This document shows positions 5,453 through 46,215 of a stretch of DNA of 64,000 nt, piece after piece. Positions within the stretch are counted from its first letter, which is position 1; each line of letters begins with the position of its first letter. The stretch is from Candidatus Woesearchaeota archaeon (lineage in GTDB: Archaea > Nanobdellota > Nanobdellia > Woesearchaeales > JAGLXL01). The stretch covers positions 360,119 to 424,118 of the forward strand of contig DAOWKC010000002.1 of assembly GCA_030640025.1 (NCBI GenBank), in the 5' to 3' direction. The position numbers and the translations under genes are program-made. Below the pieces are notes generated by a model. It had not been told where the DNA came from. It was given only the letters and a program-made list of their open reading frames with translations, and made no database searches.

Positions 5453-5689
5453 ACTGTTTTGTTACTAATTAATAGAAAATTCTATTTTATCGACGACAAA
5501 TCTCTGTTTTGGTTGGAATAATTAATATACAAATAAGTATACTGGTATCATGAAATAGTAACATTTATATATTGGTATGCATATACTCTATACTATGAGA
5601 TCAATGCCAAAGTGCGTGTATCTTCAACAAGATTTTATCAAGGAAAATTATGAAATCAGGAAAAGATGGATTGAAGATACTATTAAAAT

Positions 5690-6237: not shown

Positions 6238-6453
6238 ATGGGCAAAAAGAGGAAAAAAGAGGGTGGAGAAGCACTTATTTCTATTCCTACCTCTATATTT
6301 CAAGACCGTGAATTGAGTGTTCTTGAGGCAATTACTGAATATTTGAAAGAAAAGAAAGGAATGCGGTATAGTGAGATTGCTAAACTTCTGAATAGAGACG
6401 ATCGAACCATTTGGACATCGTATAATCGGGCTAAGGCTAAAAGGAAAAAATGA
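6238..6453 (+). CDS. small HTH protein (sigma70 region 4 / HTH_10-like), leader of the giant-protein operon
   Basis: LSVLEAITEYLKE...YSEIAKLLNRDDRTIWTSYNRAKAKRKK. About 45% identity to both HTH repeats of the 60471..61106 protein. Stop overlaps the start of the giant ORF (ATGA). Confidence 0.55.
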   Translation: MGKKRKKEGGEALISIPTSIFQDRELSVLEAITEYLKEKKGMRYSEIAKLLNRDDRTIWTSYNRAKAKRKK

Positions 6454-9400
6454 TAGATAGTGTGCTGAGCGGACAGAGAAAGGAAATCCATAGCTTGAAA
6501 AATAAAATCAAGAGGGCTGTGGGTGACAAAGAAATTTTAGCTAGACAAGAAGCCTGTATAGAACAGAGTTTTGAAAATGAAAAGATTAGTTTTTTGGAAC
6601 ATAGACAATTGCTCAATCGATGCAGGCAGCTGGATAATTCTTATAATAATCTGATTGCAGGTTGGGAAAAGAAGATTGCGAGAATTGAGAGGGGGCCAGC
6701 CCAAAAAACTTCAATCAAAAATATTTTGCCTGTTTTGATTTTAGGATTGGTGGCCTTTGTTTTGGTTCTGTCATTGCTTGGAGGCCGGGGAGTTTTGACA
6801 GGATTGTTTGTAAGTGAAAATACATTTGTGATTGAGGGTGAATTTAGACTGGATTTGAATGAATTCTTTGAAGTGGGAGAGGGTTGGAGTTATTATACTT
6901 CTGATGCTGAAAACATGGATGTAATTATTTTGAATCAAGAGTTAGTGGTGACTCCTGAAGATGGTTTTGTTGGCGAAAATAAGGTGACGGTTTATGCTTC
7001 TAATGGTTCTGATATGATTGAAGAGGAAATTATTTTGGAAGTGGCAGGAGGATTTGGTGTGGGTCCTGCTCCTGAAGAGGTTGTCGAAGAACCAATCGTC
7101 AATGAAACTGTTGAAGTGGTTGAGAATGTGACAATTGAACCAGTTGAGAATGTTACTGAGCCAATAAATGAAACAACTGAACTAGTTGTTAATGAAACCA
7201 TAGCACCAGAGCCAGAGCCTGAGCCAGTGGTTGAAGAACCTGTTAATGAAACAGTTCCAGAGATTATTCCAGAAGCAGTACCAGAAACAGGTATGACTGT
7301 GGATTCAGAAAACAAACTAAAACTTGACAATAAATTCATTGGCAAGAGAACAGATGACGGAGAAATCGAATTGTACTTTGATTTGATTGAAAAAACTGCT
7401 GACAAATTAATTTTAGAGTTCCATCATAATTCTGACAAAGCAGAGAATGTTTATGTTAGCCGGGGAGTTCTTGATAAACCAGTGCTTCAACCAGGAGAAA
7501 AAGCCAGGTTTGAAATTGATTTAGTTGAGGGTATTGTATCTAAGTTTGTGTTGAAAGCAGGAGTCAAAAAGGGCTTTGCTGTCGAAGCCCAATATTCAGA
7601 AGTATTTGAAATTGGTAAGACGATTCCAGTTGTTTCCAGTAATGGTAATTATACTTTGATTGACAGAGATGATGAAAAATTAAATGTGGAAATTGTGAAG
7701 GACAAAGGCAGGATAGCAATTGTTGGAGTTGTGGATGAGCCAAGGATTAATTCCAAGATTGAATCAGTTGCTAATGCTGATTTAACAACTGAGGTAGCTG
7801 CTGTTGAACCAATGACTATGGAAAGAGCTACCATCACTATTCCAAAAACAGGCAAAGTTGATGTGATTATGGAATGCAGTGAGATGGATGTTGAGAATAT
7901 GGTTTGCTTGGGCGAATGGCAGAAAACAGATATTATATTTACTGATAATGGAGATACAATTACCTTTACTGTTGACCATTTCAGTGGTTATGGCGGAGCT
8001 GAGTTAGAAGTACTTAATCTCCAGAGCTATCCAACTTTAGAAGGGAACTGGACAGTTGAATTTACAACAACTGGCACTGCTGATTTAAGGATAACAGCAG
8101 TGGATGGTACGACTTGGAGCAATATCAATGAAGATAGTGTCCTGAGAGGCGGAGCCTCTGGGACACAAGAGGGTTCCCCTCTTCGTGATTTGAAATTCTT
8201 AGAAGTCAGATGTGGAGATAGTGTTTTGGATTATACTTGGGTAGATAATTCGGTCTTGATTGAAAATTATTATTGCAATGAGACAGGTTATGAAACCAGT
8301 AAGGTTTTGACAACTGGTAAACATACTTTGAAATTTGAATTTGGAGATGATGTTGATTATGCTTATAATTATGTGTACAGTGGTGGTTATGATATGACCA
8401 GTCAAGATAATATAAGTTGGATGGGAGGACAACATGCAGCAACTGGCGGTTATCTTGGGGTGACGCTTGACTGGGCAGATGTCAATGGTGATGGTCATGC
8501 AGATGCGATTGTTGGCAGTTATTACAATAATAGCGGCCTGGGAGCAGTATATCTCCTTTATGGGCCTCTTGAAAGGGTAACAGATGTAGATATTTCATCA
8601 AAAGCCGATGCAGCTTGGTATGGTCCTTCAGTAGATTATGTTGGCACTTGTATTGGAACAGGAGACCTGGACAATGACGGCTATGATGATATTTTAATTG
8701 GGGCTCATGCTTATGATAATGATGCTTTAGATGGAAGAGTTAATGTGATTTACGGGCAAGCAGCAGCCTTTTCAGGAACTACAGACATGGACATAGCAGC
8801 AGATGCAACCTTTACAGGAAATGTAGAAGCTTTGGGCATGGCTTGCGACTGCGCAGACATTAACGGAGATGATTATGAGGATATTTTAATGACCAGTTAT
8901 GGTACAGGCCTTAGCAGCGACGGGATTACTTATTTGGTTTATGGACAAAGCACTAAGTTTTCTGGAGACACAGCTGTCAGTAATGCAAATGCATCATGGA
9001 CCAATGCTGGTTCGTTTGGAGAGGCTTATATTGTAAGAAGAGCCGGTGATATCAATAGTGACGGTTATGATGATTTTCTCATTGGTGAGCCAGCAATCAA
9101 TAATACTTATTTGTATTATGGGCAGGGTGCGAAATTCTCAGGAGCACACACACTCAGCACAAGCGCAAACGCAACCTTTGCAACAGCAACAACCTCAGAT
9201 TCATGCGGTTGGTCTGTTTCTTCAGCTGGTGATTTTAATGCTGATGGTTATGATGATTTCCTGATAGCGGCTCCATCAACTGATGGTCAAGAATTAACAG
9301 ACAATGGTATGGTTTACTTTTTTTATGGAGGCCAGGGATATCCATGGAGCGGAACTATAGCAATGAGTACGACTTACAATGCTTCTTTTCATGGTTATTC

Positions 9401-12400
9401 CAATACATACATGGCAGGAGCGCCGCACGAAACTGGTGCTAATGTTTATATTGGCGGTGCCTTGTCTTACGGAGATTTTAATATTGATGGTTATTCAGAC
9501 TTTTTAATTGGGTCTTATGGAGCTGATGTAGGAGGACATACTGATAATGGAGAAGTGGTTCTTGTTTATGGAAGACCTGCATTTTCCTCTGTAAATGGAT
9601 ATGAATATTCAATGGATATTAGTGCTGGAGAAGTAAATGCGAGCTTTTATGGTGAGGTAAACACAGACAGACTAAGATTTGTGCCAACTGGTATGGCAGA
9701 AGATGTATTTTATGAACACATAATGATGGGGGCTGATGGTTTTGATAATGGCGGAGGGGGTTCTTGTCCGTTCTTGTATGTTTGGGACGGAACAGAATTT
9801 GGTTTCCATGTTGACATATATCCTTCTGGAAGGCTTGGTTCAAAAATAGCAAGCGGAACACTTCCTCCACAGCCAAAAGATTATTACTTAATATCTAAAG
9901 AAAGTTTGACTGCTGCGGATGGAAAATATCAACTCCGCCTTGTTGAAGAAAGGGATGAAGTTGATTACCTTGATCAAACAGAACTCTATGTTGTTGAACA
10001 TACACCAAATACTGAAGTGGTTCCTGAATTAACAGGATTCAATCCAAAATATAAAATGAAGCTTTATTTATTAAATGAGACTATGGTACCTATCTCTTGT
10101 ATAACTGATACTGGCGAGAACTGCACAGATAAGTTGGCTGCTCAGGATTATGATTTTATTGGATTGGGAGACCGGGAATATCTTGACTGGCATTATGTTG
10201 AACTTGACTTTGGAAATATTCCTGGAGATGCTGCTCTTGTCTTTAGGGGCTATAGTGTCTGGCCTCTAACTCCAGAAGGGGTTGCTAGAAGATCATTGTT
10301 TGATAAATATGCATATATTCAGATTTATAATGGCACTGATTGGGTTAATTCTTCCTTGTATCTGCCTAACCCCAAGGAAATAACCCGGGATGCTCCCCTA
10401 AATTTCACAGGTTTGTCTCCAAATGGAAATTATAAAGTCAGGTTGCATTGGGTGCACAACACTTTCTTGGACCAGATCTATATGGGTACAATAAGTGATG
10501 AAGAAATAAGTATCACCAAACTTAATATCACTTTTGCTAACTTGACTCATCATGGAACATCTCACTTCTCAAGCTATCCTCCTCCGCTTAACTCAGATTA
10601 CGAGACTGCTAATGCAATACCCAGCAATTACAAGTATTATGATGGAAATTACACAAGATACGGCGATGTCCTGGAATTATTAAATAAAACAGATGACAAG
10701 TTTGCCATCTTCCATGCAGGCGATGAAATACAGCTGGAATGGGATGCTTATAATCCAACCCAAGATTATGACTTTATGCTGTATTCATATGGGTACTATA
10801 AGGACCGAAAAGCAGCAATTAATACACCCAACATGACTGAAGATGTTGAGCCCTTGCCTTTCCATGATATGAGCAACTTCCCTTACCCTGACAACGAGAG
10901 CTATCCTGATGATGAAGAACATAATAATTATCGCTTAACTTATAACACCAGAGAAAGAATTCATGGAGAAGATGTCACAACTTCATTGCCTCACAGCGAT
11001 GAAGGAAAAGTTTATGTGATGGAAGGAGCGCTGAATCATCCACCAGCTCATGACACGCCAATCTTAAATGCAACAAGTGTTGATAACTTAACCTTAGATG
11101 ATTTGATAGTCTATGTGCAGAATGTCAGTGATGTTGAAAACGATTCTGTGACAAACATTACTGACTGGAGAAAAGACGGAACTTCTATAGCTGTGCTGAA
11201 CATGCCTTTTGATACAAATGATTCTTTAGCTGTAGATGATTATTCTGACTATGTGAATGATGGAACAGTTAATGGAACAACATGGACAAGTTCTGGAATA
11301 TTAGGGGGAGCTTATGAATTTAAACGTACTAATACTGATTACATAGAGATTACTGATGATGCTTCATTAAATCTGACAGGTGATATTACTCTAGAAGCAT
11401 GGATTAAGTCAGATAGTATTGGTGTAGCACAATATATTATATCAAAGCCACTGAATGATGGTATGGGTAATATGCGTTCTTATCCTTATACCCTTTATTT
11501 ATCTCAAGGTAAGATTTGTATGAGAGTTTATATTGATGGTTGGAGCATTTATGCGGCTGGAAGCAATAATACAGTCTGCTCAGACAATAATGTTTCAGAA
11601 GGCACGTGGTCCCATGTTGTGGGAACTTATGATAACAGCACTGGTTTAACATCTATTTACATAAACGGGACAGTGAATAAATCAGCTGTAAGAACTACTC
11701 AGGACGCAGGTTTAACAAAAGCAACACCTGTATTTATTGGTTCTGAAATAAGTACTTTGGGAGTTAAAGGGTGGTCTGCCTTTAACGGTACGATAGATGA
11801 AGTCAGAATTTACAATAGAACTTTGAGTGCAGAACAAGTTGCAGCTAATTATAATAATAGTGATCCTAAGTATGACAAAATTGTTTCAGAGGAAACTGTT
11901 GTTGATGATATATGGCAGGCCTGTATAACACCAAATGACAGAACAGATGATGGGATAACCAAGTGTTCAAATAATTTGACAATTTTAAATACAGCGCCAA
12001 CCCAAGGCAGACCAATTTTAAATTCAACTGACCCCAGTAAAAATAACACTAATCAAAACTTAACTGTTTATAATCAGTCAACTAGTGACGATGATGATCA
12101 TGCAGTCAAGAATATTATTAATTGGTATAAAGATGGGGGTTCGATTACTGAAGTGCATATGCCGTTTGAAGGCGGAGGAAATGCAACTCATGATGAAGAC
12201 GGTTTCACTAAAGATTATTCTGGACATGGAAATAATGGCTCAACAGCAGGTGGCATTACCTGGAGTAAAACAGGGGGATATGACGGCAAAGGAGCTTATG
12301 AGTTTGATGGGATTAATGGTCAGATTACTATTGCTGATGATGCTACCTTAAATGTAGGAGATAAGATAACAGTAATGACCTGGGTTAAAGCTGACACCAT

Positions 12401-15400
12401 GCCTGATGACGGAGGTGCTACTTTTAGGACAATTGCCTCTAGAACAAGAGTATATGATGATGCTAATACAGTTTGGTATTTGGTTTATGCTGAAAACGAC
12501 GGGAAACTTTATTTTGCTGTTGGGAACGGCGCTTCAAGAATACAGTCTTTGAACAGCTTTACAGCTCCGGATTCAAACTGGCAGCATATAGCTGGTGTTT
12601 ACAATGGTTCGCATACGCTGCTTTATATAAACGGCTCTTTGATAAATGTGTCGAGTTCAACAGTCAGCAGCATAAAGAGTACAAATAATAATATTTTAAT
12701 TGGAGAAGATAGTGGCAGGCCTTGGAACGGTACGATTGATGAATTGATAATTTTCAATCGTTCTTTGTCAGCAGAACAAATCAAAGTGTTGTATGAAAAT
12801 AGGACAGATTTAATTGTTTCACAAGAAACTGCTGTTGATGATGTATGGCAGGCATGTATAACACCAAATGACGGAACAGATGACGGGACTGAGAATTGCA
12901 GTAATGATTTGACAGTTATTAATAATATTCCAACCCAAGGCAGACCGATTTTGAATTCGACTGACCCCCACACAAATAGCACTGATCAAAATTTGACTGT
13001 TTATAATCAATCAACTGATGATGCTGATGAGGATGCAGTCAAGAATATCATTAATTGGTATAAAGATAATACTTCATTTACTATGTTGAATATGCCTTTT
13101 GAAGGCGGTTTGCTGGCTGAAGGAGAGACAAAAGTTAAAGATTATTCTCAGTTTGGTAATAATGGAACAGTAACAGAAGCAATTTATCAAGGGTCAGGTG
13201 GTTATGATGGAAAGGGAGCTTATTGGTTTGATGGAAGCAATGATTACATTGACTGCGGAGCTGATAATAGTGTCAATCAGACTGAGGAGATGACGCTGAG
13301 TGCCTGGATAAAATATGATGCAGTGACTGACAATTATGGTGCACTGATGGCTAAGTCAGACGGAGCAGGAATCACTGCTGGATGGAGGCTCCATTGGAAT
13401 AATGCCAATCCTGAATTGAGATTCTTACTAGCTTTGGCCAGTGGAAATAAAGCAATAACCAGTCCAAGTTTAACAGCAAGTACATGGTATCATGTGGCAA
13501 CTACCTTTAATGGTACTGGGATGGCAATTTATGTTAATGGGACATTGGTAAGCAGCACAAGTTTTGCTGCGACAACAATTAAGCCAGCAACCAATGCCTT
13601 AAGGATTGGGGCTGATAATCAGGATTTGAATTTCAAAGGAACGATTGATGAGGCGATGATTTTTAATCATTCGTTAAGTGCTGAACAAATCCAGGTTTTG
13701 TACCAGAACAGGACAGATTTAATTGTTTCCCAAGAAACTTCTATTGAAGATGTTTGGAAAGCCTGTCTGACACCAAATGACGGAACTGTTGACGGAGTTG
13801 AGAATTGCAGTAATGATTTGACTGTTTTGAGAGATTATGCACTTTGTGGAGATACTTTGCAGGCAAACAACCGGTATGTATTGAAGAATGATACTTCAAG
13901 TACAGGAACCTGTTTTACAATCCCTGGCGACAATATTGAAATTGACTGCCGGGGATACAAAATCACTGGACCAGGGGGTACAGGCGTTTCCTATGCAATC
14001 TATTCAGCAGCTGCCAGGACTAATTTAACTCTCAAGAACTGCTGGATTGAGGATTTTAACCGTGGAGTTTATCGTGATTTTGTAAATTCAAAGTTCATTA
14101 ACAACACTTTCAACTACACTCGTACTTGTGGCATTCATCTTAGGTCAGCTAGTAGCTATCTTAATATCAGTGGAAACACTTTTATTGATACAGGAAAAAC
14201 CTCGCCAGCCAACAGCAATGCTGGTTCTTACTCAATCTTTCTTGACAGTGCTGATAACGTTGATATCTATCACAATACTTTCACCCGCGGCCTTGGCTCT
14301 GAAATTTACTTCAATGGCGCCAGCACCAACAGGAATATCAAACATAATTATGTTGACAAAGATAATATCAACAATGAGATCTTTTATTTTTTAACAGTTA
14401 CTGGTTCAGCTACTGTTGAAAACAATACTTTTGTCAATGTTGGAGCTGGTTGGGCTTATTATCTCACAAGTGTTAACACACTCATTACCTTTGTTGGCAC
14501 TAATCTGGTTGATGGGGAAAACGCCAGCAATTATTTTGTTTATAACAGAAATAACACCATCATTGAAAATCTAAATCATAACGGCTCAGAAAGAGTTCTT
14601 AACTGGGGTAATTTTGTTGCTTATAATTGTGATAATCTGACTGTCAGGAACAATAATTTCACCAATCATCATAGCTATTCCAACATGTACCTGCGTAGTG
14701 TAGATAATTCTGACATTTACAATAACAACATCATCAATAGAACCACCGGGGGTACTTACAACTTTCATATCTATCACTGTGATAATTTAAATATTTTCAG
14801 CAATGAAATAAAAGATACCCAAGCTGATGGATTGAAATTAGACACCTGTAGTGGAGCTCAGATATATGATAATAATATTTCAGCTAGTACATCCAGTGGT
14901 AGTTATGCCTTTGATATGTACAGCACCGCTGCTGGTCATGGCCATGCGGTTATTAAAAATAATAATATCTCAGGCGGATCTTACTCAGCATATTTTGCCG
15001 GGACTAGCTCAACTGCCTTGACCAATGTCTCTTTTTTTAATAATTCAATCTCTGGTATGGGGTCCACCGGAATCCATCTTAATGCAGGTATGATTGATGT
15101 TTCTAACAACACCATCACTTGTCCAAATAATCATCAAGGCATCCACCTCGTTAGTGCCACTGGCAACCACACTGTCTTTGGAAATCAAATCAATAATTGT
15201 CGATATGGCCTTGCTCTGCAAAGAGGAGAATCAAGAATCCAGAATAATACTATCACAACCAGAACAGCCACACCAACACAAACTTGGGGAGTTCATGTTC
15301 AAAATGTTGATAACCATCTCTTGAATGTCAATCTTACCAGGGACAACACTGTTGATGGCAAGGCTGTGCCTTATTATTTCAAAGAATCTGCTGCCAGCAT

Positions 15401-18400
15401 CTCTGATCAGAACATTAATTTAACCAAATTAATCAGCACTGGGATAACTTTAATTGGTTCTAATGATATGGTTATTGATAACAATAACATCACTGGCAAT
15501 GATGCAACTATTGGTGGTGCAGGCATAACCTTGTTATATTCTAATTATACCAACATCACCCATAATAATTTCCATGATTTTAACTATGCAATTAACCTAC
15601 CTTACTACCTTGATCAATCAGAAAGAGCTTATATTGCCCATAATTATTTCAATAGCTCGAAGTATGGAATATATTTCTCCGTTAATGTCCAATATAAAGT
15701 TAATTATACCATTTTCAATAATACTTTTTATCAAATAGGTACCAATCCAATTTATAGGTACTGTTCCGCAACTGCACCACACAGAAACAGCCGGATGAAC
15801 ATAACTGGTAACCTGTTTAATTATTCAGCATCACGAGATATGCATTTAGGTAATTGTGTTAATAATACCATAGAAGGCAATAGGTTTGATTATACAGGCA
15901 CTCAAAGTATATACTTTTATAATGCTGACCAGAACACCATCAAAAACAATAATTTCACTAATATTAGAACTGATGGAACAAGCGCTTATTATATATACAT
16001 ACAAAGTGGAAGTAGTAACAATAATATAACTGGCAATCGCTTTACTGGTTCTCCTGGTTATCCTTATTATGGTTTAGGAGTAGATTCGTCTAATAACAAC
16101 CATGTCTCTGGAAATTATTTCAATAACTCTAGATATGCTATTTACTATTTTAACACTGCCAGCGGCAACCCCACTTATAACAATGAGATATATAGTTCTA
16201 CCACAGCCGGTTTCAGAGTTGCCAATGCCAATAACCAGAATATTTACAACAACACAGTTTGTTATAACAAACAAGCTGTTTCATTCACCAATGCAGCTTA
16301 TAATCTCAGCACAGTTGGCTGGCATAACAACTTGATGTGCGTCAATTCCATTATCCCAGAAAACGGCACTACCATCCAGGACACCACCCCGGAAATCTTC
16401 TTCCACATTTCCAACTTGATGGATCAATCTTCAACCAATTGTTCTGCTGTTATCAATGGTGTTGAAAATGGTTATAATGATACTATGGGAGCAGACGGTC
16501 AAAACCAAACTATCCAAGTTTCAAATGCTTTGGCAAGCGGAGAAAACTTCCTCCAAATCAACTGCACTGATGATTATAATGATACTTTGGTATTCCATAA
16601 TATTTCATTCAATGTCCCAATAACATGTAGTGATATTGCTGATGATATTATCATGTTTGCAAATATATCTGCTGATTTGAGAGTTTGCTTTAATATAACA
16701 ACAAATAATATCACAATTGACTGTGATGGTTACACTTTAATCGGCAATGGTTCAGTTGGAATACAAGCAAATGGTTATGACGGATTGACAATTAAGAATT
16801 GTGTGTTTGAGAATTTTACACAAGACATTATTTTTGACAATTCAGATAATGGAACAGTTGAAAATACAGATGTTATTATTAATATTACAAATTCAGAGAA
16901 TGCAGTGGTCAATCTTTCTGATGTTGACTGGCTGTACATCACTAATTCAACAAATGTTCGGGTTGTTGATTCAATTGTGAGAAATTATACTTTTGCTAAT
17001 GCAACTTTCTTTATGATGGAAAACAGCACTTATGGACAGCTTAAGTTCTTAAAGAATGTTTCTGGTATTGGAACCAATCTGTTTGTAAATTCCAGTTCAG
17101 ATATTGTTTGGGAGAGCTTGAGTGTAGGAGTGAATTCAGTTAATCAGCCAGCCTTTAATATTTCAGCAAATGTTTCCTTGTATAATGTACTGCAAATCCT
17201 GCCGCAGCTATATGTTAATATCAGCGGCAACTGGACTTTGTGTAATGAAACAACCAGTCCGTCATGTTATAATTTGAGTTATGCGAACCAAGTTTACATC
17301 TTTAATGTTTCACACTTTACATCATTTATATCAAAGGAATTTGCTGGTTTGATACAGAATTTTAGCTGGCCAGCACATCTGCCAAGAGCAGGCTATGAAG
17401 GAACAATAATATTGATTGACATAGATAAGAATGGAACCAGGGATTTACATATAACCGGCAGTCTTGATACAGTAACTTATTATAATGAAGTTCACCTTAA
17501 TACTGGTGATAATTTTTCTAAGGACACTTCCTTGAGCGGTGATTTGAAAGGAGTGTCTTACAGCGGAGCTGCCTGGGGTGATTATAACAGAGATGGTTAT
17601 TCTGATTTGGTCTATTGCGGTAAGAATGCAACTCATGTTATGACTGAAGCCTTGACAAGTGCAGATGGGAAAGTTTTGAACCGGGATATTCCAAGCATAG
17701 GCAATCTGACTGATGTGGCTTATTGTTCTGTGGTCTTTGGGGATGTGGATGTTGACGGTGATTTGGATTTGGCCCTGCAAGGACAGATTGATCCAACAGC
17801 AGCAGTTTGTGAAGTTTACACTAATAATGATGGAGTCTTTAATTTGAATGTAACTTTATCAAGCAATTGCACTGGAAAATATGATGGTGAATTGAAGTTT
17901 GTTGATGTGAACAATGACAGCTTTGTTGATTTGTTGAGCATAGGTGTTACTTTAGCTGGAACTCCTTTGATTGAGGTTATGATTAATGGCAATGGCAACA
18001 AGTTAGAGCTCAATACATCATATTATAATCTGCTTAATTTAAGCAAAGCAACTTTGAATTATGGAGATATGGACAATGATGGTCTAAGAGATATAATTTA
18101 TCATGGAACAGAGGCAGGAGGGGGAAGTTCACGAACAGTTTGGTATAAGAATACTGGTTCGGGTTTTACTGAGGTAGGTAATCATGACATGAAGAATTTA
18201 ACCCAAGGAGCAATTTGTATTGTTGATTTTAATAATGACGGCTGGAGAGATGTTTATATGTCTGGAAATGAATTGGCATCAGGGAATTATCATGCAGATG
18301 TTTATTTGAATAATGGAGATGGAAGCGGGTTGTTTAAAAGTTATCAATACAGTATTAATTTATCGGCAGGGTTTAGAAGTGCTTGTGCTACGGCTGATGT

Positions 18401-19319
18401 TGAGAATGCGTCACATGCTGATTTAGTAGCAACTTGGGGCAGTGGAGGACCTGATAATTTTGTGGGTGGATGGAATGGTAATCCTGATACTTGGGTTGTG
18501 CCGGATAATGCCAGGCCGACTGCAGTAGGACCGCCAAATGTTGAGGCTAATGATATGGGTGGAGGAATGATGGAGATAACGATGGATTCAGGAGATGGTG
18601 ATGATGACGTGCCGCCGAGGGATGAGGACAATGGAGATGTGGTTGGTTATGATGCAAAAGACATTGTATCTGGAGATATATTAATTTCAAATGAACCAGG
18701 ACAAGTAGCATCGCCTGGTTCTTATGACATGACCTACCCAGCTAAAGCAAGCACTGCTATACTAAGAACAAGTATCACCAATGTGGTTGATGTTAGTTGG
18801 TGGGATTTGGACGAAGGTTATGAACTAAGTGATATATCAGATACTACAACAGTTTGGATAGCTGATGTGTTTGAGGTAGTGGGCAGTCTGGCTGCAATAA
18901 TTGTTGGAGATGATTGTTATCTTTCAACAGATAATACCACACTAGGATCTCATACTATCCCTTGTTCTAATCTTGGTAACTGGTCGACATTAAATCTGTC
19001 AATCACGCCAAGGACACCTTATAATTTAACTGTTCATTGTACAAAGAATATAACTGCAGAGTTTGGTGATGGAACTGAGAATAATAATTATATTGGGAAA
19101 GTCCAGAATACATCTTACACAGGTAACAGAACAATTATTGCTGATGCCTGGGTTTTAGCAAATTATAATGCTTCTTCCTTGTATCCGATTATGTTAGTCC
19201 AGAATGGCACTTTTACTGGCACTAACCATAATTATACTATTGAAGTTGGCAAGGAATTAGATGTTTTAACACCCGTTGGAAATTATAATAATACCATTGT
19301 CTTTACAGTTTGGGTATAA
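6450..19319 (+). CDS. giant surface protein (4289 aa). Contents: signal anchor, NET/PEP-rich stalk, two FG-GAP beta-propeller blocks, 3x LamG/ConA-like, long right-handed beta-helix.
   Basis: TM at aa 93-115. FG-GAP repeats (DVNGDGHADAIVGS, DLDNDGYDDILIGA, etc.) at about nt 8400-9560 and 17400-18300. LamG_3-like modules (LTLEAWIK...GTIDEVRIYNRTLSAEQV) repeated three times between nt 11090 and 13850. PbH1-like NNxI repeats at about nt 13860-16900. Hundreds of N-x-S/T sequons. Confidence 0.9.
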   Translation: MIDSVLSGQRKEIHSLKNKIKRAVGDKEILARQEACIEQSFENEKISFLEHRQLLNRCRQLDNSYNNLIAGWEKKIARIERGPAQKTSIKNILPVLILGLVAFVLVLSLLGGRGVLTGLFVSENTFVIEGEFRLDLNEFFEVGEGWSYYTSDAENMDVIILNQELVVTPEDGFVGENKVTVYASNGSDMIEEEIILEVAGGFGVGPAPEEVVEEPIVNETVEVVENVTIEPVENVTEPINETTELVVNETIAPEPEPEPVVEEPVNETVPEIIPEAVPETGMTVDSENKLKLDNKFIGKRTDDGEIELYFDLIEKTADKLILEFHHNSDKAENVYVSRGVLDKPVLQPGEKARFEIDLVEGIVSKFVLKAGVKKGFAVEAQYSEVFEIGKTIPVVSSNGNYTLIDRDDEKLNVEIVKDKGRIAIVGVVDEPRINSKIESVANADLTTEVAAVEPMTMERATITIPKTGKVDVIMECSEMDVENMVCLGEWQKTDIIFTDNGDTITFTVDHFSGYGGAELEVLNLQSYPTLEGNWTVEFTTTGTADLRITAVDGTTWSNINEDSVLRGGASGTQEGSPLRDLKFLEVRCGDSVLDYTWVDNSVLIENYYCNETGYETSKVLTTGKHTLKFEFGDDVDYAYNYVYSGGYDMTSQDNISWMGGQHAATGGYLGVTLDWADVNGDGHADAIVGSYYNNSGLGAVYLLYGPLERVTDVDISSKADAAWYGPSVDYVGTCIGTGDLDNDGYDDILIGAHAYDNDALDGRVNVIYGQAAAFSGTTDMDIAADATFTGNVEALGMACDCADINGDDYEDILMTSYGTGLSSDGITYLVYGQSTKFSGDTAVSNANASWTNAGSFGEAYIVRRAGDINSDGYDDFLIGEPAINNTYLYYGQGAKFSGAHTLSTSANATFATATTSDSCGWSVSSAGDFNADGYDDFLIAAPSTDGQELTDNGMVYFFYGGQGYPWSGTIAMSTTYNASFHGYSNTYMAGAPHETGANVYIGGALSYGDFNIDGYSDFLIGSYGADVGGHTDNGEVVLVYGRPAFSSVNGYEYSMDISAGEVNASFYGEVNTDRLRFVPTGMAEDVFYEHIMMGADGFDNGGGGSCPFLYVWDGTEFGFHVDIYPSGRLGSKIASGTLPPQPKDYYLISKESLTAADGKYQLRLVEERDEVDYLDQTELYVVEHTPNTEVVPELTGFNPKYKMKLYLLNETMVPISCITDTGENCTDKLAAQDYDFIGLGDREYLDWHYVELDFGNIPGDAALVFRGYSVWPLTPEGVARRSLFDKYAYIQIYNGTDWVNSSLYLPNPKEITRDAPLNFTGLSPNGNYKVRLHWVHNTFLDQIYMGTISDEEISITKLNITFANLTHHGTSHFSSYPPPLNSDYETANAIPSNYKYYDGNYTRYGDVLELLNKTDDKFAIFHAGDEIQLEWDAYNPTQDYDFMLYSYGYYKDRKAAINTPNMTEDVEPLPFHDMSNFPYPDNESYPDDEEHNNYRLTYNTRERIHGEDVTTSLPHSDEGKVYVMEGALNHPPAHDTPILNATSVDNLTLDDLIVYVQNVSDVENDSVTNITDWRKDGTSIAVLNMPFDTNDSLAVDDYSDYVNDGTVNGTTWTSSGILGGAYEFKRTNTDYIEITDDASLNLTGDITLEAWIKSDSIGVAQYIISKPLNDGMGNMRSYPYTLYLSQGKICMRVYIDGWSIYAAGSNNTVCSDNNVSEGTWSHVVGTYDNSTGLTSIYINGTVNKSAVRTTQDAGLTKATPVFIGSEISTLGVKGWSAFNGTIDEVRIYNRTLSAEQVAANYNNSDPKYDKIVSEETVVDDIWQACITPNDRTDDGITKCSNNLTILNTAPTQGRPILNSTDPSKNNTNQNLTVYNQSTSDDDDHAVKNIINWYKDGGSITEVHMPFEGGGNATHDEDGFTKDYSGHGNNGSTAGGITWSKTGGYDGKGAYEFDGINGQITIADDATLNVGDKITVMTWVKADTMPDDGGATFRTIASRTRVYDDANTVWYLVYAENDGKLYFAVGNGASRIQSLNSFTAPDSNWQHIAGVYNGSHTLLYINGSLINVSSSTVSSIKSTNNNILIGEDSGRPWNGTIDELIIFNRSLSAEQIKVLYENRTDLIVSQETAVDDVWQACITPNDGTDDGTENCSNDLTVINNIPTQGRPILNSTDPHTNSTDQNLTVYNQSTDDADEDAVKNIINWYKDNTSFTMLNMPFEGGLLAEGETKVKDYSQFGNNGTVTEAIYQGSGGYDGKGAYWFDGSNDYIDCGADNSVNQTEEMTLSAWIKYDAVTDNYGALMAKSDGAGITAGWRLHWNNANPELRFLLALASGNKAITSPSLTASTWYHVATTFNGTGMAIYVNGTLVSSTSFAATTIKPATNALRIGADNQDLNFKGTIDEAMIFNHSLSAEQIQVLYQNRTDLIVSQETSIEDVWKACLTPNDGTVDGVENCSNDLTVLRDYALCGDTLQANNRYVLKNDTSSTGTCFTIPGDNIEIDCRGYKITGPGGTGVSYAIYSAAARTNLTLKNCWIEDFNRGVYRDFVNSKFINNTFNYTRTCGIHLRSASSYLNISGNTFIDTGKTSPANSNAGSYSIFLDSADNVDIYHNTFTRGLGSEIYFNGASTNRNIKHNYVDKDNINNEIFYFLTVTGSATVENNTFVNVGAGWAYYLTSVNTLITFVGTNLVDGENASNYFVYNRNNTIIENLNHNGSERVLNWGNFVAYNCDNLTVRNNNFTNHHSYSNMYLRSVDNSDIYNNNIINRTTGGTYNFHIYHCDNLNIFSNEIKDTQADGLKLDTCSGAQIYDNNISASTSSGSYAFDMYSTAAGHGHAVIKNNNISGGSYSAYFAGTSSTALTNVSFFNNSISGMGSTGIHLNAGMIDVSNNTITCPNNHQGIHLVSATGNHTVFGNQINNCRYGLALQRGESRIQNNTITTRTATPTQTWGVHVQNVDNHLLNVNLTRDNTVDGKAVPYYFKESAASISDQNINLTKLISTGITLIGSNDMVIDNNNITGNDATIGGAGITLLYSNYTNITHNNFHDFNYAINLPYYLDQSERAYIAHNYFNSSKYGIYFSVNVQYKVNYTIFNNTFYQIGTNPIYRYCSATAPHRNSRMNITGNLFNYSASRDMHLGNCVNNTIEGNRFDYTGTQSIYFYNADQNTIKNNNFTNIRTDGTSAYYIYIQSGSSNNNITGNRFTGSPGYPYYGLGVDSSNNNHVSGNYFNNSRYAIYYFNTASGNPTYNNEIYSSTTAGFRVANANNQNIYNNTVCYNKQAVSFTNAAYNLSTVGWHNNLMCVNSIIPENGTTIQDTTPEIFFHISNLMDQSSTNCSAVINGVENGYNDTMGADGQNQTIQVSNALASGENFLQINCTDDYNDTLVFHNISFNVPITCSDIADDIIMFANISADLRVCFNITTNNITIDCDGYTLIGNGSVGIQANGYDGLTIKNCVFENFTQDIIFDNSDNGTVENTDVIINITNSENAVVNLSDVDWLYITNSTNVRVVDSIVRNYTFANATFFMMENSTYGQLKFLKNVSGIGTNLFVNSSSDIVWESLSVGVNSVNQPAFNISANVSLYNVLQILPQLYVNISGNWTLCNETTSPSCYNLSYANQVYIFNVSHFTSFISKEFAGLIQNFSWPAHLPRAGYEGTIILIDIDKNGTRDLHITGSLDTVTYYNEVHLNTGDNFSKDTSLSGDLKGVSYSGAAWGDYNRDGYSDLVYCGKNATHVMTEALTSADGKVLNRDIPSIGNLTDVAYCSVVFGDVDVDGDLDLALQGQIDPTAAVCEVYTNNDGVFNLNVTLSSNCTGKYDGELKFVDVNNDSFVDLLSIGVTLAGTPLIEVMINGNGNKLELNTSYYNLLNLSKATLNYGDMDNDGLRDIIYHGTEAGGGSSRTVWYKNTGSGFTEVGNHDMKNLTQGAICIVDFNNDGWRDVYMSGNELASGNYHADVYLNNGDGSGLFKSYQYSINLSAGFRSACATADVENASHADLVATWGSGGPDNFVGGWNGNPDTWVVPDNARPTAVGPPNVEANDMGGGMMEITMDSGDGDDDVPPRDEDNGDVVGYDAKDIVSGDILISNEPGQVASPGSYDMTYPAKASTAILRTSITNVVDVSWWDLDEGYELSDISDTTTVWIADVFEVVGSLAAIIVGDDCYLSTDNTTLGSHTIPCSNLGNWSTLNLSITPRTPYNLTVHCTKNITAEFGDGTENNNYIGKVQNTSYTGNRTIIADAWVLANYNASSLYPIMLVQNGTFTGTNHNYTIEVGKELDVLTPVGNYNNTIVFTVWV
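11090..13850 (+). repeat. intragenic tandem repeats (about 930-bp period, 3 copies, roughly 85% nt identity in cores) encoding LamG/ConA-like modules of the giant protein
   Basis: Near-identical stretches around 11860-12130, 12790-13080 and 13690-13850. Antisense shadow ORFs 11849..12049 and 12623..12982 are mutually similar. Confidence 0.8.
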
Positions 19320-38123: not shown

Positions 38124-39158
38124 ATGTTACCAGAAAAAGAAATCAAGAAGCTGCGAGAGGAATTAGAGACAGCGACACGGCCGTTGATTTTTTTTGATGA
38201 TGATCCAGACGGGTTATGTTCATTTTTGTTGTTTTACAGGTTTTTGCGTGAAGGCAAGGGTGTGGTTAAGAAAAGTTCCCCTAAAATTACAACTGCTTTT
38301 TTGCGAAAAGTTGAGGAATATAATCCAGACAAGGTTTTTATTTTAGATGTGCCGATGGTGGATCAGGATTTCTTGGATGCTGTTAAAGTGCCAGTGGTTT
38401 GGGTAGACCATCATGATCCTTTAGAAAGGCACAAGGTTCGTTATTTTAATCCGCGGATTTTTGATAATAAGATTTATTATCCAGTAACTAAGATTTGTTA
38501 TGATGTAGTCAAGCAAGATATGTGGCTAGCCATGGTGGGTTGTATTGGTGACTGGCATATTCCTGATTTTAAGGATGAGTTTGTTAAAAAATATCCTGAT
38601 TTGTGGGACGGCAAGGGTGATCCTGGAGACGTGACTTATGGCACTCGTTTGGGCAGGTTAGTTAGAATATTTTCTTTTTGTTTGAAGGGGAAAACTTCCC
38701 AAGTCATGAAGGTAGTCAAGATTTTGACCAGAGTTGAAACTCCTTATGAGATTATTGACGGGAAAAGCCCACAAGGAAGATTTGTTTTAAAGCATATCAA
38801 AAGGGTGGAAGGGCATTATAACGATTTATTGAAAAAAGCTAAGAAGAAAGTTGGCAAAGGCAAATTAGTGTTGTTTAGGTATGAAGAGAATCAATGGGCT
38901 TTGTCAAGTGATTTGGCTGGTGAATTGATTTTTTTACATCCAGAAAAAGTTGTGATTGCGGGTCGTGAGAAGAGCGGTGAATTAAAATGCAGTATCCGGA
39001 GCCGGAAGATTAAGATTAAATCGATTTTAGCCAAAGCTCTGCAAGGGATTGAAGGATATGGCGGGGGCCATGATTATGCCTGCGGTGCGGTGGTGAAGGT
39101 TGAGGATTTTGAACAATTTATTAAAAATTTTAAGAGGGAGTTGAATGGAGCCAATTAA
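38124..39158 (+). CDS. DHH-DHHA1 phosphoesterase (NrnA/RecJ-like)
   Basis: DDDPDG, VDHHDP and GGGHDYACGA motifs. Confidence 0.8.
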   Translation: MLPEKEIKKLREELETATRPLIFFDDDPDGLCSFLLFYRFLREGKGVVKKSSPKITTAFLRKVEEYNPDKVFILDVPMVDQDFLDAVKVPVVWVDHHDPLERHKVRYFNPRIFDNKIYYPVTKICYDVVKQDMWLAMVGCIGDWHIPDFKDEFVKKYPDLWDGKGDPGDVTYGTRLGRLVRIFSFCLKGKTSQVMKVVKILTRVETPYEIIDGKSPQGRFVLKHIKRVEGHYNDLLKKAKKKVGKGKLVLFRYEENQWALSSDLAGELIFLHPEKVVIAGREKSGELKCSIRSRKIKIKSILAKALQGIEGYGGGHDYACGAVVKVEDFEQFIKNFKRELNGAN

Positions 39159-39564
39159 TAGTTTGTTGGTGTTTTTAGTGGCTCTGACAGGATATCTTCT
39201 TGGTGTTGGTTTAAGTTATATTGCTCCTGAGGAATTAAAGCCAGGTTTTCGTTATTTTTTATGGCTGGAAAGAGGATTGTTTGTTTTGACTTTTTTGCCA
39301 ATAATCTATGTTTTTGGGTTAAGTACATGGGTGATGATACCAGTAGCAATTGCCTTGGTGTCTTTGTTTCTAAATGTTAAGTATAGGATTTATGGTTCTT
39401 TTGGATTATTTTTAGTTTGGTTTTTTTTAGTTTGGGAAGAGAATTTGATTGTGGTGTTATTGGCGAGCGCTATATTTGTTTATGGTTTAGTGGCTGGAAC
39501 TTTGGCTTTAGAAGATTTATCGCCATCTCGAATGGCCAAATTGAATAAGAAGGTCAAGGTTTGA
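39145..39564 (+). CDS. hypothetical membrane protein. Its 3' end is formed by one copy of a 41-bp direct repeat.
   Basis: Four TM helices. The C-terminal codons ...MAKLNKKVKV* lie in repeat copy 1. Confidence 0.45.
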   Translation: MEPINSLLVFLVALTGYLLGVGLSYIAPEELKPGFRYFLWLERGLFVLTFLPIIYVFGLSTWVMIPVAIALVSLFLNVKYRIYGSFGLFLVWFFLVWEENLIVVLLASAIFVYGLVAGTLALEDLSPSRMAKLNKKVKV

Positions 39565-39573
39565 TAATCCGAT
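39533..39573. repeat. direct repeat copy 1 (about 41 bp, 22-bp perfect core CCAAATTGAATAAGAAGGTCAA)
   Basis: Matches 40225..40266 with about 5 mismatches. The two copies bracket the DUF4258/Zn-ribbon-AbrB cassette. Confidence 0.8.
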
Positions 39574-39582
39574 GTTATTTCT

Positions 39583-39924
39583 TTACCCAATATCCACAAT
39601 CAATCGATTTTTTGACTCAGGATAAATAGTTACTTCTTCCCCTTTTTTTAATTCTAAAAATTTGGCAACTTTGTGAGCAATTTTGATATCTAATGAATTG
39701 CCTACTTTACCAACTTTAGTGTGAGATTCTAAACCCCACAGACCTTTTTTCTTGGCTAGAGCATCTATTTTATCTGAAACCTTTTCATCAAATACTGTGT
39801 CTTTACATTTATTGCAGACTTTAGCTTTAAATTTACCTAAGGAAATACCATGAACAGAAAAGTCTACATTCTTATAAGAATATTTACCTGTTTTACACTC
39901 CCAACATTTCATATCTTTTCTCAT
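39583..39924 (-). CDS. YgiT/MqsA-type zinc-ribbon plus AbrB/SpoVT-like domain protein (putative antitoxin)
   Basis: CWECKTG...CNKCKD zinc ribbon. C-terminal GNSLDIKIAHKVAKFLELKKGEEVTI is a swapped-hairpin-like domain. Paralog of 45874..46215. Confidence 0.55.
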   Translation of the reverse strand: MRKDMKCWECKTGKYSYKNVDFSVHGISLGKFKAKVCNKCKDTVFDEKVSDKIDALAKKKGLWGLESHTKVGKVGNSLDIKIAHKVAKFLELKKGEEVTIYPESKNRLIVDIG

Positions 39925-39943
39925 CTTGGCTCACCTACCTCTT

Positions 39944-40141
39944 TTATTCAATATAAACTGTTTTTATTCTATAAAGATCGCCTCTTTTTTTGTAAGCGAC
40001 TCTAATGTAGGAATACTTTACTAAAAAGCCATCAGTCTGTTCAAATTTTGAACCTTGATTAATGGCTTTTTTAATTTGTTCTGTAGTGATTCCATGTATC
40101 ACCATCTTTTCTTTGGCATGTTTAGTAATATCCAATCTCAT
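39944..40141 (-). CDS. DUF4258-like putative toxin
   Basis: ITKHAKEKMVIHGIT...GDLYRIKTVYIE. Confidence 0.5.
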   Translation of the reverse strand: MRLDITKHAKEKMVIHGITTEQIKKAINQGSKFEQTDGFLVKYSYIRVAYKKRGDLYRIKTVYIE

Positions 40142-40218
40142 TTATATAACCTGTTATTACTAATTATAACATATAATAACTTAGAACTATATAAATTTTT
40201 CTATTATGAAGAATATAT

Positions 40219-40518
40219 CTATCTCCATCTAGAGTGTCCAAATTGAATAAGAAGGTCAAAAGTTTGCGGTAGTTTTGGAGTGTCACAAGCACCATAGCAA
40301 GTTCCAAGCCAGATAAAAACTTCTGCTGACGTTGATTTTTCTAAAGTTGTCTTGATTTCTTCTGCTCTGGGTTTTAAGCCGTCTGGCAATTGGATGCAGA
40401 CTAACTTAGCTTTTTTCTCTTTGATTTTGCTGATGGCTTTTTTTAGTTCTAAATCTAGTTGCATTGGAAAATTCTCCAAATTTTCTAATGTCTTAAAAAT
40501 CTCTGATTTTAAAGACAT
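40219..40518 (-). pseudogene. dph2: N-terminal fragment (about 95 aa) of diphthamide synthase Dph2, truncated at the repeat junction
   Basis: KLVCIQLPDGLKPRAEEI...VFIWLGTCYGACD...DLLIQFGHS matches the Dph2 N-terminus and then stops (RWR*). The downstream two-thirds of the gene is absent. Confidence 0.55.
40225..40266. repeat. direct repeat copy 2, inside the dph2 N-terminal fragment (encodes DLLIQFGHS on the minus strand)
   Basis: See copy 1. Confidence 0.8.
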
Positions 40519-40553: not shown

Positions 40554-40931
40554 TTAGTTGAGAGAAGGATAATTAACTTGATTTGGAATGTTTCCAATGG
40601 CTTCTTCAGCGGTAGCTTCAACTTTAATTTCTAAATCGTCTCCAAGATTATACCATTCGGCTTGTCCATCTCCTTTGTCATATTGGGAGAGGCCAGTTGC
40701 CTCGTATGTTCCTTTACTATCTGTCGTCAGTAAGATTATGTTTAATTCACTTGGAGCTGGTTTTTTATCTGACCTAAGAAATTGAAGCACCATTGCAGTA
40801 GGCGGAAAGCCTGAAAGTTGAGCAAATTCAAATTCTTTATCTTGATATGTTGCTGTTAAGATAACTCCCAAATTTGTGTTGGAGTTTAAAATAGGAGTTT
40901 TTCTACCTTCAATTCTTAAAACATTACTCAT
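40554..40931 (-). CDS. hypothetical protein
   Basis: ORF only. Confidence 0.35.
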   Translation of the reverse strand: MSNVLRIEGRKTPILNSNTNLGVILTATYQDKEFEFAQLSGFPPTAMVLQFLRSDKKPAPSELNIILLTTDSKGTYEATGLSQYDKGDGQAEWYNLGDDLEIKVEATAEEAIGNIPNQVNYPSLN

Positions 40932-41255: not shown

Positions 41256-41657
41256 ATGTTTGAGCACGAGATGGCTGGTTTATTAGGGAAAATTATTTCT
41301 GGAGAGAGGGTAATGGAGAAGGCTGGTGACTGGCAATTCCAATCTAGAAAGGATGACTTTTTATTTCATTTAATTCATCCAAAGGCAGAGTATGCTTTTG
41401 AAATTTGCGAATCAGAAGGCGGGGCGATTAAATTTTCAAATTATCACCGCCGGGCTGAGAAAGGGAACGGTACTGCAACTTTAAAACATGTAGAAGCGGC
41501 AATTCAGATCTTGTCTAATGAGCAAAGGAAGCCGGTGAGAGTTATATTTGAAGAGTTGGGTGGACAGACAGATACAGTGCAATGGCTTGAGAAAAATGGT
41601 TATGTTTCAATGACTGGGGAGAAGTATATTAAATATTTTAATCCTGACTTACCTTAA
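41256..41657 (+). CDS. hypothetical protein (possible minimal GNAT-like)
   Basis: HRRAEKGNGTATL resembles a GNAT motif A, weakly. Confidence 0.3.
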   Translation: MFEHEMAGLLGKIISGERVMEKAGDWQFQSRKDDFLFHLIHPKAEYAFEICESEGGAIKFSNYHRRAEKGNGTATLKHVEAAIQILSNEQRKPVRVIFEELGGQTDTVQWLEKNGYVSMTGEKYIKYFNPDLP

Positions 41658-45443: not shown

Positions 45444-45543
45444 TTATTTCTTGATTATTGAATAAGGAATTAATTTATATTCTACATAATAGAAACATTT
45501 AAATATCAGTAAAGATATTATACAAGATATCAAAAGAGATATT

Positions 45544-45831
45544 GTGATAGATATGTTTAATATTGAATATCAAGGATTAAGAATAGAACCAACCTTACAT
45601 GCAACACGAGAATTGATTAAGGAAGGAAAAGATCTTTATGATGTTCTTAAAATATTATTAGAAGGTTATGATTGCGGTGCTTCAAAAAGAAAAGAAAATA
45701 TTATTGAAAGATGCCTGAGAAAAGGCGATAAAGAATTTAAAGCTGTCATTGCCAAAACAGAGTTGAGTTATCCGGATGGTTTTCAAGAGAGTGTTTGGCG
45801 ATTAATTCATTTTGGTAAAACTACTATATAA
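45544..45831 (+). CDS. possible DUF4258-like toxin
   Basis: IEPTLHATRELIKEG motif. Precedes a Zn-ribbon/AbrB gene in the same order as the 40141/39924 pair. Confidence 0.35.
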   Translation: MIDMFNIEYQGLRIEPTLHATRELIKEGKDLYDVLKILLEGYDCGASKRKENIIERCLRKGDKEFKAVIAKTELSYPDGFQESVWRLIHFGKTTI

Positions 45832-45873
45832 AAAACTAGTAAAGTTATATTATTCAAAAGAGGTGTAAAAAAA

Positions 45874-46215
45874 ATGGCAAAAGAAAAGATTAGAAAAGAT
45901 ACTTGGCAAGCTAGACATACTTGTACCCATTGTGAAATTCCGATGGAGAAAAAGAAAATAATAATTGAAGGAATAGAAATAAGGGGTTGGGAATGTTCGA
46001 AATGTAAAGAAACTGTTTTACATTCAGAAGATGCACAAAAAATGTTGTTTTTAAATAAATTGAAAAGGGGTATTAAAGTTAAAATTGGAGAATTAGGCCA
46101 ATCGTTGATTATTAGATTCCCAAAGGAAGTAGTGGATTTTTACAAAATTAAAAAAGGAGAAGACCTTACTTTAAGAGCAGAAGATATGAAAAGAATAGAA
46201 TTAGTTCCGGCATAA
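45874..46215 (+). CDS. YgiT-type zinc-ribbon plus AbrB-like domain protein (paralog of 39583..39924)
   Basis: CTHCEI...CSKCKE. C-terminal GQSLIIRFPKEVVDFYKIKKGEDLTL. Confidence 0.55.
   Translation: MAKEKIRKDTWQARHTCTHCEIPMEKKKIIIEGIEIRGWECSKCKETVLHSEDAQKMLFLNKLKRGIKVKIGELGQSLIIRFPKEVVDFYKIKKGEDLTLRAEDMKRIELVPA

Follow-up and report, generated by a model that had tools for sequence, protein, structure and literature searches.

We analyzed a stretch of 64,000 nucleotides from Candidatus Woesearchaeota archaeon (assembly GCA_030640025.1, contig DAOWKC010000002.1, positions 360,119 to 424,118 of the forward strand), which we refer to as the window. All positions below count from its first letter. 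The window contains a small toxin-antitoxin (TA) cassette that lies between two copies of a direct repeat. On one side of the cassette lies the gene of a membrane protein and on the other side a short gene related to the diphthamide synthesis gene dph2, here called mini-dph2. These two genes point toward each other, and each of them ends in one of the two repeat copies (Table 1). In what follows we describe the genes, the repeat and the corresponding site in related genomes, and ask how the cassette came to lie between two genes that have both kept their ends.

Table 1. Positions of the genes and sequence features at the cassette locus (window coordinates; nt, nucleotides; aa, amino acids).
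Feature	Position	Strand	Description
Repeat copy 1	39515..39563		49 nt; + strand: C-terminal tail of the membrane protein, LSPSRMAKLNKKVKV; - strand: ghost 3' end of mini-dph2 (DLLIQFGHSRWR-TAA)
Repeat copy 2	40217..40266		50 nt; - strand: functional 3' end of mini-dph2 and TAG; + strand: ghost membrane-protein tail (LSPSRVSKLNKKVKSLR-stop)
Perfect 22-nt core, CCAAATTGAATAAGAAGGTCAA	39536..39557		copy 1; partner at 40238-40259 in copy 2
Membrane-protein gene	39145..39564	+	139 aa, multi-pass; convergent with mini-dph2
Mini-dph2	40219..40464	-	intact 81-aa stand-alone gene for the Dph2 N-terminal domain
Inserted DNA	39564..40216	-	653 bp with a GC content of 28.9%; holds the toxin and antitoxin genes and their promoter; absent at the orthologous site in five related lineages
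Toxin gene	39944..40141	-	65 aa, DUF4258 (BECR / RelE-ParE superfamily)
Antitoxin gene	39583..39924	-	113 aa, or 109 aa if counted from the second ATG; putative zinc ribbon of two CxxC pairs at the N terminus (YgiT/MqsA-type, DUF7479), putative SpoVT/AbrB (MazE-like) domain at the C terminus
Putative promoter region of the cassette	40142..40210	-	AT-rich; BRE/TATA-like (BRE, transcription factor B recognition element) AATAGAAAAATTTATATAG at about 40206-40188; read from sequence

A repeat search across the window aligns 43 nt at 88% identity (39515-39557 and 40217-40259). When one indel is allowed, the copies extend to 49 and 50 nt (39515-39563 and 40217-40266). This is the sole long direct repeat of the window that is not within repetitive giant genes. 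Its perfect core of 22 nt has two matches in total in the 64 kb at up to three mismatches, where 100 shuffles lead us to expect none. Copy 2 codes for the end of the Dph2-like open reading frame (ORF), ...FDLLIQFGHSRWR-TAG. At the junction of copy 1 and the insert, the TGA stop codon of the membrane gene (39562-39564) is made up of two repeat bases and one base of the insert. Only the last two to three residues of the membrane protein and its stop codon are new in comparison with relatives, a change from KKVK(I/S)..R-stop to KKVKV-stop.

The ORF of mini-dph2 extends to 40518 and would then encode 99 aa, which is also the public gene call. Its first 18 codons (40465-40518) are without counterpart in relatives. 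Relatives begin at the methionine of MQLDLEL or MELDLEL, which places the start at the ATG at 40464 and leaves a protein of 81 aa. This protein matches positions 1-56 of the 302 positions of PF01866 (Diphthamide_syn) and positions 2-80 of the 320 positions of TIGR00322 (E=2.3e-19). In the solved Dph2 structures 6BXM and 6Q2D, its counterpart is residues 7-84.

Mini-Dph2 belongs to a large family of equally short proteins. A database search returned 1398 significant homologues; the best 120 of the 1398 are all 79-112 aa long, most of them 80-87 aa. The best homologues come from Woese-, Pace- and Nanoarchaeota, and the protein is encoded at at least 589 loci in the species genomes of GTDB. An alignment of 34 members contains invariant Cys, Gly, His and Trp positions, including those of a CxGACD motif that aligns with the GACD motif of solved Dph2. 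We take the cysteine of this motif to be a ligand of the [4Fe-4S] cluster, equivalent to Cys59 of PhDph2. All 34 aligned members, with or without a TA cassette, terminate in GHSxW, one to three further residues and a stop codon.

Several DPANN archaea encode Dph1/2 as separate genes for the N-terminal and the C-terminal domain (Narrowe et al. 2018, PMC6143161). The 81-aa gene in the window corresponds to residues ~7-84 of archaeal Dph2 and has kept the cysteine of the CxGACD motif. We see no difference between it and the N-terminal gene of the published split. Mini-dph2 is a normal gene, namely the N-terminal half of the Dph1/2 that is known to be split in DPANN archaea.

The site without the cassette still exists in related genomes. 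We found it in 12 contigs that represent five related lineages (L001-L008, L016, L017, L120 and L121). The order of genes in all 12 contigs is Rpr2, p71, mini-dph2, membrane gene and DHH/DHHA1 phosphoesterase. The mini-Dph2 proteins encoded there are 89% (L001-L008), 86% (L120), 83% (L121), 77% (L016) and 72% (L017) identical to the one in the window. At the nucleotide level the window and its nearest relatives share 74-82% identity, with a synonymous divergence (dS) of about 1.

In every empty-site contig mini-dph2 and the membrane gene run toward each other and share the DNA of their 3' ends. The shared part measures 36 nt in L001-L008 and L016 and 51 nt in L017, L120 and L121. Hence, the strand opposite the most strongly conserved motif of mini-Dph2 encodes the tail of the membrane protein. 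Such antisense-encoded tails read ...SPATMAKLNKKVKIR-stop in L120 and ...APTRMSKLKK-stop in L002. The alignment of the junctions shows what has changed in the window. At copy 2 the homology to relatives runs into the body of dph2 and stops just past the stop codon. At copy 1 it runs into the membrane gene and stops at the other end. The window thus consists of the ancestral overlap, 653 bp of new DNA and a duplicated overlap.

The new DNA is poorer in GC (28.9%) than the flanking genes (35-39%). Its toxin matches the Pfam family PF14076 (E=2.1e-7) with 31.6 bits against a cut-off of 25, and the match covers residues 5-63 of 65. The antitoxin itself is without a Pfam match and has sub-threshold NCBIfam matches to doc_partner/AbrB (1.4e-5) and MqsA (0.021). 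Among the 37 members of the antitoxin family alignment, 18 match DUF7479, seven match MazE/AbrB and five match MqsA. Four cysteines, arranged in two CxxC pairs, are invariant, and source annotations call the homologues YgiT-type zinc finger proteins. The helix-turn-helix (HTH) domain of true MqsA is absent from the antitoxin.

Cassettes of this kind are also found elsewhere. The toxin gene lies directly upstream of the antitoxin gene in 24 of 31 homologous loci, and most of the others end at a contig edge. The promoter block with AATAGAAAAATTTATATAG is kept in the alignment of homologous cassettes. In the window an inverted repeat, GTTATTA/TAATAAC (40153-40159 and 40174-40180), follows the TATA box ahead of the start codon and may serve as an operator. 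The surroundings of homologous cassettes are unrelated to our locus, for example AbiEii/AbiEi neighbours in L011-L013 and a cluster of transfer RNA (tRNA) genes in L014 and L015.

DUF4258 is described as a BECR-fold toxin of the RelE/ParE superfamily whose target is unknown, and fusions of DUF4258 and MqsA are on record (Gerdes 2025, PMC11980606). A 2026 preprint places DUF4258 in a colicin-like branch of RNases. The cassette in the window shares with the DUF4258/MqsA-type type II systems (PMC11980606) a small DUF4258 toxin that scores above the Pfam cut-off and an adjacent, putatively YgiT-type partner with a CxxC...CxxC zinc ribbon, in a conserved unit of two genes. It differs from them in the following respects. 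The C-terminal DNA-binding domain appears to be SpoVT/AbrB (MazE-like), whereas MqsA has an HTH; the toxin gene comes first, whereas the table in PMC11980606 gives the order A/T for DUF4258; and the host is a DPANN archaeon. Judging by family membership and anatomy, the cassette is presumably a TA system of type II. An RNase-type toxin would be neutralized by the zinc-ribbon/AbrB antitoxin, and the AbrB domain of the antitoxin is predicted to autorepress the cassette promoter through the inverted repeat.

A second TA-like cassette is located at 45480-46215 on the + strand of the window. It consists of a 95-aa ORF without family match (45544-45831) and a 113-aa ORF with a zinc ribbon and a MazE/AbrB-like domain (45874-46215). 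The latter protein and the C-terminal part of the first antitoxin share 36% identity. The two cassettes have almost the same promoter motif (CATAATAGAAACATTTAAATA in the second), and the GC content is equally low (28.8%).

The four genes at the locus are all intact and conserved, and all four are under purifying selection. The ratio of nonsynonymous to synonymous substitution rates (dN/dS) is 0.10 for mini-dph2 in comparison with its nearest relatives, 0.18-0.30 for the membrane gene, 0.057 for the toxin gene (compared with L014) and 0.068 for the antitoxin gene.

The two copies of the repeat have diverged from each other. They differ at 5 of 43 positions and by the indel near one end. None of the five alters what the dph2 frame encodes: four affect third positions (one of them is the TAA/TAG difference) and the fifth is CGA/AGA. 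Three of the five are silent in the frame of the membrane gene, too. Only 5 of the 135 single-base changes that are possible in the segment are silent in both frames, and three of those five are seen between the copies. The polarity of the five differences is not readable, because third positions are too saturated among the outgroups. Both copies have derived states relative to L002 (CTT CTT ATT CAA versus TTA CTT CTT CAG, and AGA versus CGT). Since these states are common to both copies, the duplication is younger than the split from L002.

Much of this had been seen in a first-pass annotation that a model made from the letters alone. The repeat with its 22-bp perfect core is real, being a unique pair in the window that has no match in shuffles. 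The position given for copy 2 (40225-40266) holds, while that for copy 1 (39533-39573) is 10 nt too high; the string in question lies at 39523-39563. Copy 2 does encode the conserved Dph2 segment up to the stop codon (...DLLIQFGHSRWR-stop). Copy 1 likewise supplies the tail and the stop codon of the membrane gene, although with about 15 codons (LSPSRMAKLNKKVKV-stop) and not with the last 10. The annotation had also found nothing between the copies except a DUF4258-like toxin gene, a zinc-ribbon/AbrB gene and their promoter, in agreement with the ORFs and the Pfam match. To the annotation this module looked like an insertion or a recombination scar, and the empty sites that appear when the locus is aligned with relatives (12 contigs of five lineages), the low GC content of the insert and the homologous cassettes in unrelated contexts all speak for an insertion. 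The annotation went too far in calling the insertion fresh: judged by the divergence of the copies, it is not.

We consider it likely that the TA cassette inserted into the overlap of mini-dph2 and the membrane gene, that about 50 bp of the target were duplicated in the process, and that no gene was destroyed. In such a scenario the ancestor, a DPANN archaeon of the Woesearchaeota/Nanoarchaeota type, would have carried an 81-aa mini-dph2 and a 139-aa membrane gene in convergent orientation, with a 3' overlap of ~50 nt. A foreign cassette of 653 bp with its own archaeal promoter would then have entered the overlap, and 49-50 bp of target would have been duplicated. Mini-dph2 would keep its full 3' end and stop codon in copy 2, and the membrane gene would keep its tail in copy 1. 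Both genes kept their 3' ends because the overlap was duplicated. Afterwards, each copy would have drifted with only its own gene constraining it. The insertion, the duplication, the integrity of the four genes and the purifying selection on them are seen in the sequences themselves, whereas the TA biochemistry and the route of the duplication are our inference.

Any insertion that cut either gene would be selected against. Without a duplication of the overlap, one of the two genes, both of which are under purifying selection, would have been cut. Thus, selection explains the outcome in every scenario, whatever the mechanism by which the duplication arose. Both components of the locus are of known kinds, namely DUF4258/MqsA-like TA modules and, in DPANN archaea, a split Dph2. 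The unusual feature is a 50-bp duplication that has un-overlapped two convergent genes.

The first-pass annotation had arrived at a different reading, in which a full-length dph2 had lately been cut behind LIQFGHS by the TA insertion, and diphthamide synthesis had been inactivated in this way. In its favor, the ORF matches only the first 56 of the 302 Pfam positions and ends within copy 2. However, the relatives that lack the cassette end at the same residue (...GHSRW(R/K)-stop), and these empty-site loci already refute a truncation. The N-terminal fragment is an ancient, stable feature, a conserved family with a common stop position, as seen in the best 120 of the 1398 homologues and in the endings of the 34 aligned members. 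Furthermore, the gene evolves at a dN/dS of 0.10, no dph2-like sequence follows copy 1, and split genes have been published for several DPANN archaea (PMC6143161). A destroyed dph2 is therefore extremely improbable. An artefact that joined unrelated contigs at the repeat is equally improbable, even though the source is a metagenome assembly. The exact shared stretch measures only 22 nt, and the copies are only 88% identical. The same gene order is found on three to four contigs of 50 kb to 1 Mb, the synteny of the flanks matches relatives on both sides, and an identical antitoxin is present at NCBI on a 91.9-kb contig of a metagenome-assembled genome.

Alternatively, the cassette and its repeats could be ancestral, and the relatives could have lost the cassette. 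Recombination between the direct repeats would recreate exactly the overlap that we observe, which would then be secondary. Yet the overlap occurs in five lineages with 72-89% mini-Dph2 identity, so that this explanation demands several independent losses, and a single gain in the lineage of the window is by far the more parsimonious. Identity between the copies is 88%, as against 74-82% (dS of about 1) between the window and its nearest relatives, and hence the duplication is younger than the splits. An antisense-encoded tail, moreover, requires a prior overlap. We regard an ancestral cassette as very improbable. A last alternative treats the repeats as the attachment sites attL and attR of a circular element that integrated in a site-specific or Campbell-type manner. 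This element would have carried a mini-dph2 3' end, perhaps that of another strain, and recombined within the 22-nt core; the rest of it, including the integrase, would have been deleted later, and the addictive TA cassette would be the last survivor. A repeat of ~50 bp whose core is perfect and whose arms have diverged does resemble archaeal attachment sites that rebuild the 3' end of their target. That all arm differences are silent for dph2, and three of them in both frames, is expected of allelic divergence under dual constraint, and in L014 a homologous cassette is flanked by two tRNA-Tyr sequences, duplicates of each other that share a perfect stretch of 64 nt. On the other hand, the DNA between the repeats contains neither an integrase nor any other gene of an element. 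At 91 other mini-dph2 loci the 3' end of the gene is not repeated within 6 kb, a distance at which larger elements would escape, and searches of viral and proviral contigs gave no mini-dph2, no match to its 3' end motif and no antitoxin. The derived states common to both copies also make them mutual closest relatives. Taken together, we think that an origin from attachment sites is unlikely.

Some observations weigh against an insertion into the overlap with duplication of its target as well. The excess of doubly silent differences hints, if marginally (p~0.04 by our own estimate, n=5), at a descent of the copies from two alleles. No transposase is known to give a target duplication so long. 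The ORFs and repeats examined at the locus include neither an integrase nor terminal inverted repeats; no transposase ORF lies between the repeats, and no inverted repeat pairs the two ends of the insert. Only 3 of ~20 homologous cassettes with readable flanks have a flanking direct repeat at all (those in the window, L014 and L101). Hence, a long duplication is not a regular property of the cassette. Finally, a gene for the C-terminal part of Dph2 was not found in the 64-kb window. A tblastn search with the Dph2 of P. horikoshii found this part neither in the window nor at 95 loci (up to 6 kb from mini-dph2, 80 other species), although the N-terminal part of the query matched every mini-dph2. 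Pfam searches of 20 window ORFs of 95-519 aa gave no PF01866 match either.

For an insertion into the overlap, three routes could lead to the duplication. Staggered breaks ~50 nt apart may have been filled in. Alternatively, a short tandem duplication of the overlap may have come first, and the cassette may then have inserted into the few free bases at the junction. The third route would be recombination in the identical core with circular DNA that bore a dph2-3' arm from another strain. The doubly silent differences are a weak hint in favor of this third route, while the fact that the two copies are each other's closest relatives argues against it. Near the site we found no tRNA or Rfam element.

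The locus resembles known insertion systems only in part. As in integrase attachment systems, direct repeats of ~50 bp flank foreign DNA, a perfect core of 22 nt is present and the 3' end of the target is reconstituted. In contrast to these systems, the locus is without an integrase, the insert measures only 653 bp, the repeats are 88% identical and the site is not reused in the 91 related loci. The target-site duplications of transposases and casposases share with our locus that duplicated target borders the insert on both sides. Such duplications by known enzymes measure roughly 2-15 bp. Here 49-50 bp are duplicated without a transposase or terminal inverted repeats, and most homologous cassettes are without a flanking repeat.

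It is conceivable, though we think it quite doubtful, that the ~50-bp duplication is the footprint of a route by which minimal TA cassettes without enzymes of their own are mobilized in DPANN archaea. The route could involve, for example, a recombinase acting in trans or the integration of a circle through a host-gene 3' end that it carries. If this were true, then cassettes could enter overlapping or essential gene ends without damage, and the duplicated tRNA-Tyr of L014 would be a second example.

Two homologous cassettes have flanks of their own kind. The closest homologue of the TA cassette is found in L014 (GCA_053531955.1, 188-1862), where a cluster of tRNA-Tyr, -Glu, -Pro and -Gln genes and a 5' tRNA-like fragment precede it. 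On both sides of this cassette stands a copy of tRNA-Tyr together with the region upstream of it; the copies align over 234 nt at 82% identity with a perfect stretch of 64 nt, and the second copy is without the 3' acceptor strand. Positions 1686-1862 of L014 hold a degenerate, fused remnant of another DUF4258/antitoxin pair, and an IS66 transposase lies 3 kb further. In L101, a homologous TA pair has on either side a copy of a 62-nt direct repeat (4694-4755 and 5472-5528, 87% identity) in which the cassette promoter is contained, as might be left by tandem cassettes or a duplicated promoter.

For the annotation of DPANN genomes, the locus implies that a short, seemingly truncated dph2 is a normal N-terminal half. 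It should not be scored as a pseudogene or as a loss of diphthamide synthesis. The locus is also a natural example of foreign DNA that enters a streamlined genome at a tail-to-tail gene overlap. The insertion that survives is the one that duplicates the overlap, and each copy then comes under the constraint of one gene. The case can inform views of how genes overlap and how plastic genomes are in ultra-small archaea, but it opens no new field.

The neighbours of mini-dph2 vary among genomes. In many Woesearchaeota (L016-L095) the gene directly downstream on the same strand encodes a membrane protein, either an EamA transporter of ~298 aa or a phosphodiesterase (GDPD) with a transmembrane (TM) anchor. 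We considered the ~298-aa ORFs just downstream of mini-dph2, which are present in many species, as candidates for the Dph2 C-terminal gene and rejected them as EamA transporters. Other neighbours were rejected as well, being TM-anchored GDPD, NUDIX and RpiB proteins. L079 gave a longer match in tblastn and was tried as a full-length dph2; its ORF is 84 aa long. We do not claim a conserved partnership between mini-Dph2 and a membrane protein: the tblastn identities of 25-35% lie in TM regions and may be compositional, because the membrane proteins there are unrelated.

Compared with the minimal synteny of the relatives, the window contains three separate insertions within 2.5 kb. Between p71 and mini-dph2 lies a 125-aa ORF without family match (40554-40931, - strand) and without a convincing flanking repeat. 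The same slot holds an unrelated ORF of 106 aa in L002 and nothing in L016, L120 and L121, which makes it a second variable insertion slot. Between Rpr2 and p71 lies a 133-aa ORF without family match (41256-41657, + strand) that overlaps the 3' end of Rpr2 by 9 nt. Rpr2 and p71 are adjacent in L120 and L121, and a gene of 286 aa lies between them in L001. Elsewhere in the window, a giant ORF of 4289 aa (6450-19319, + strand) contains internal repeats of ~300 nt and FG-GAP-like DGYDD repeats, and is followed by an ORF of 881 aa.

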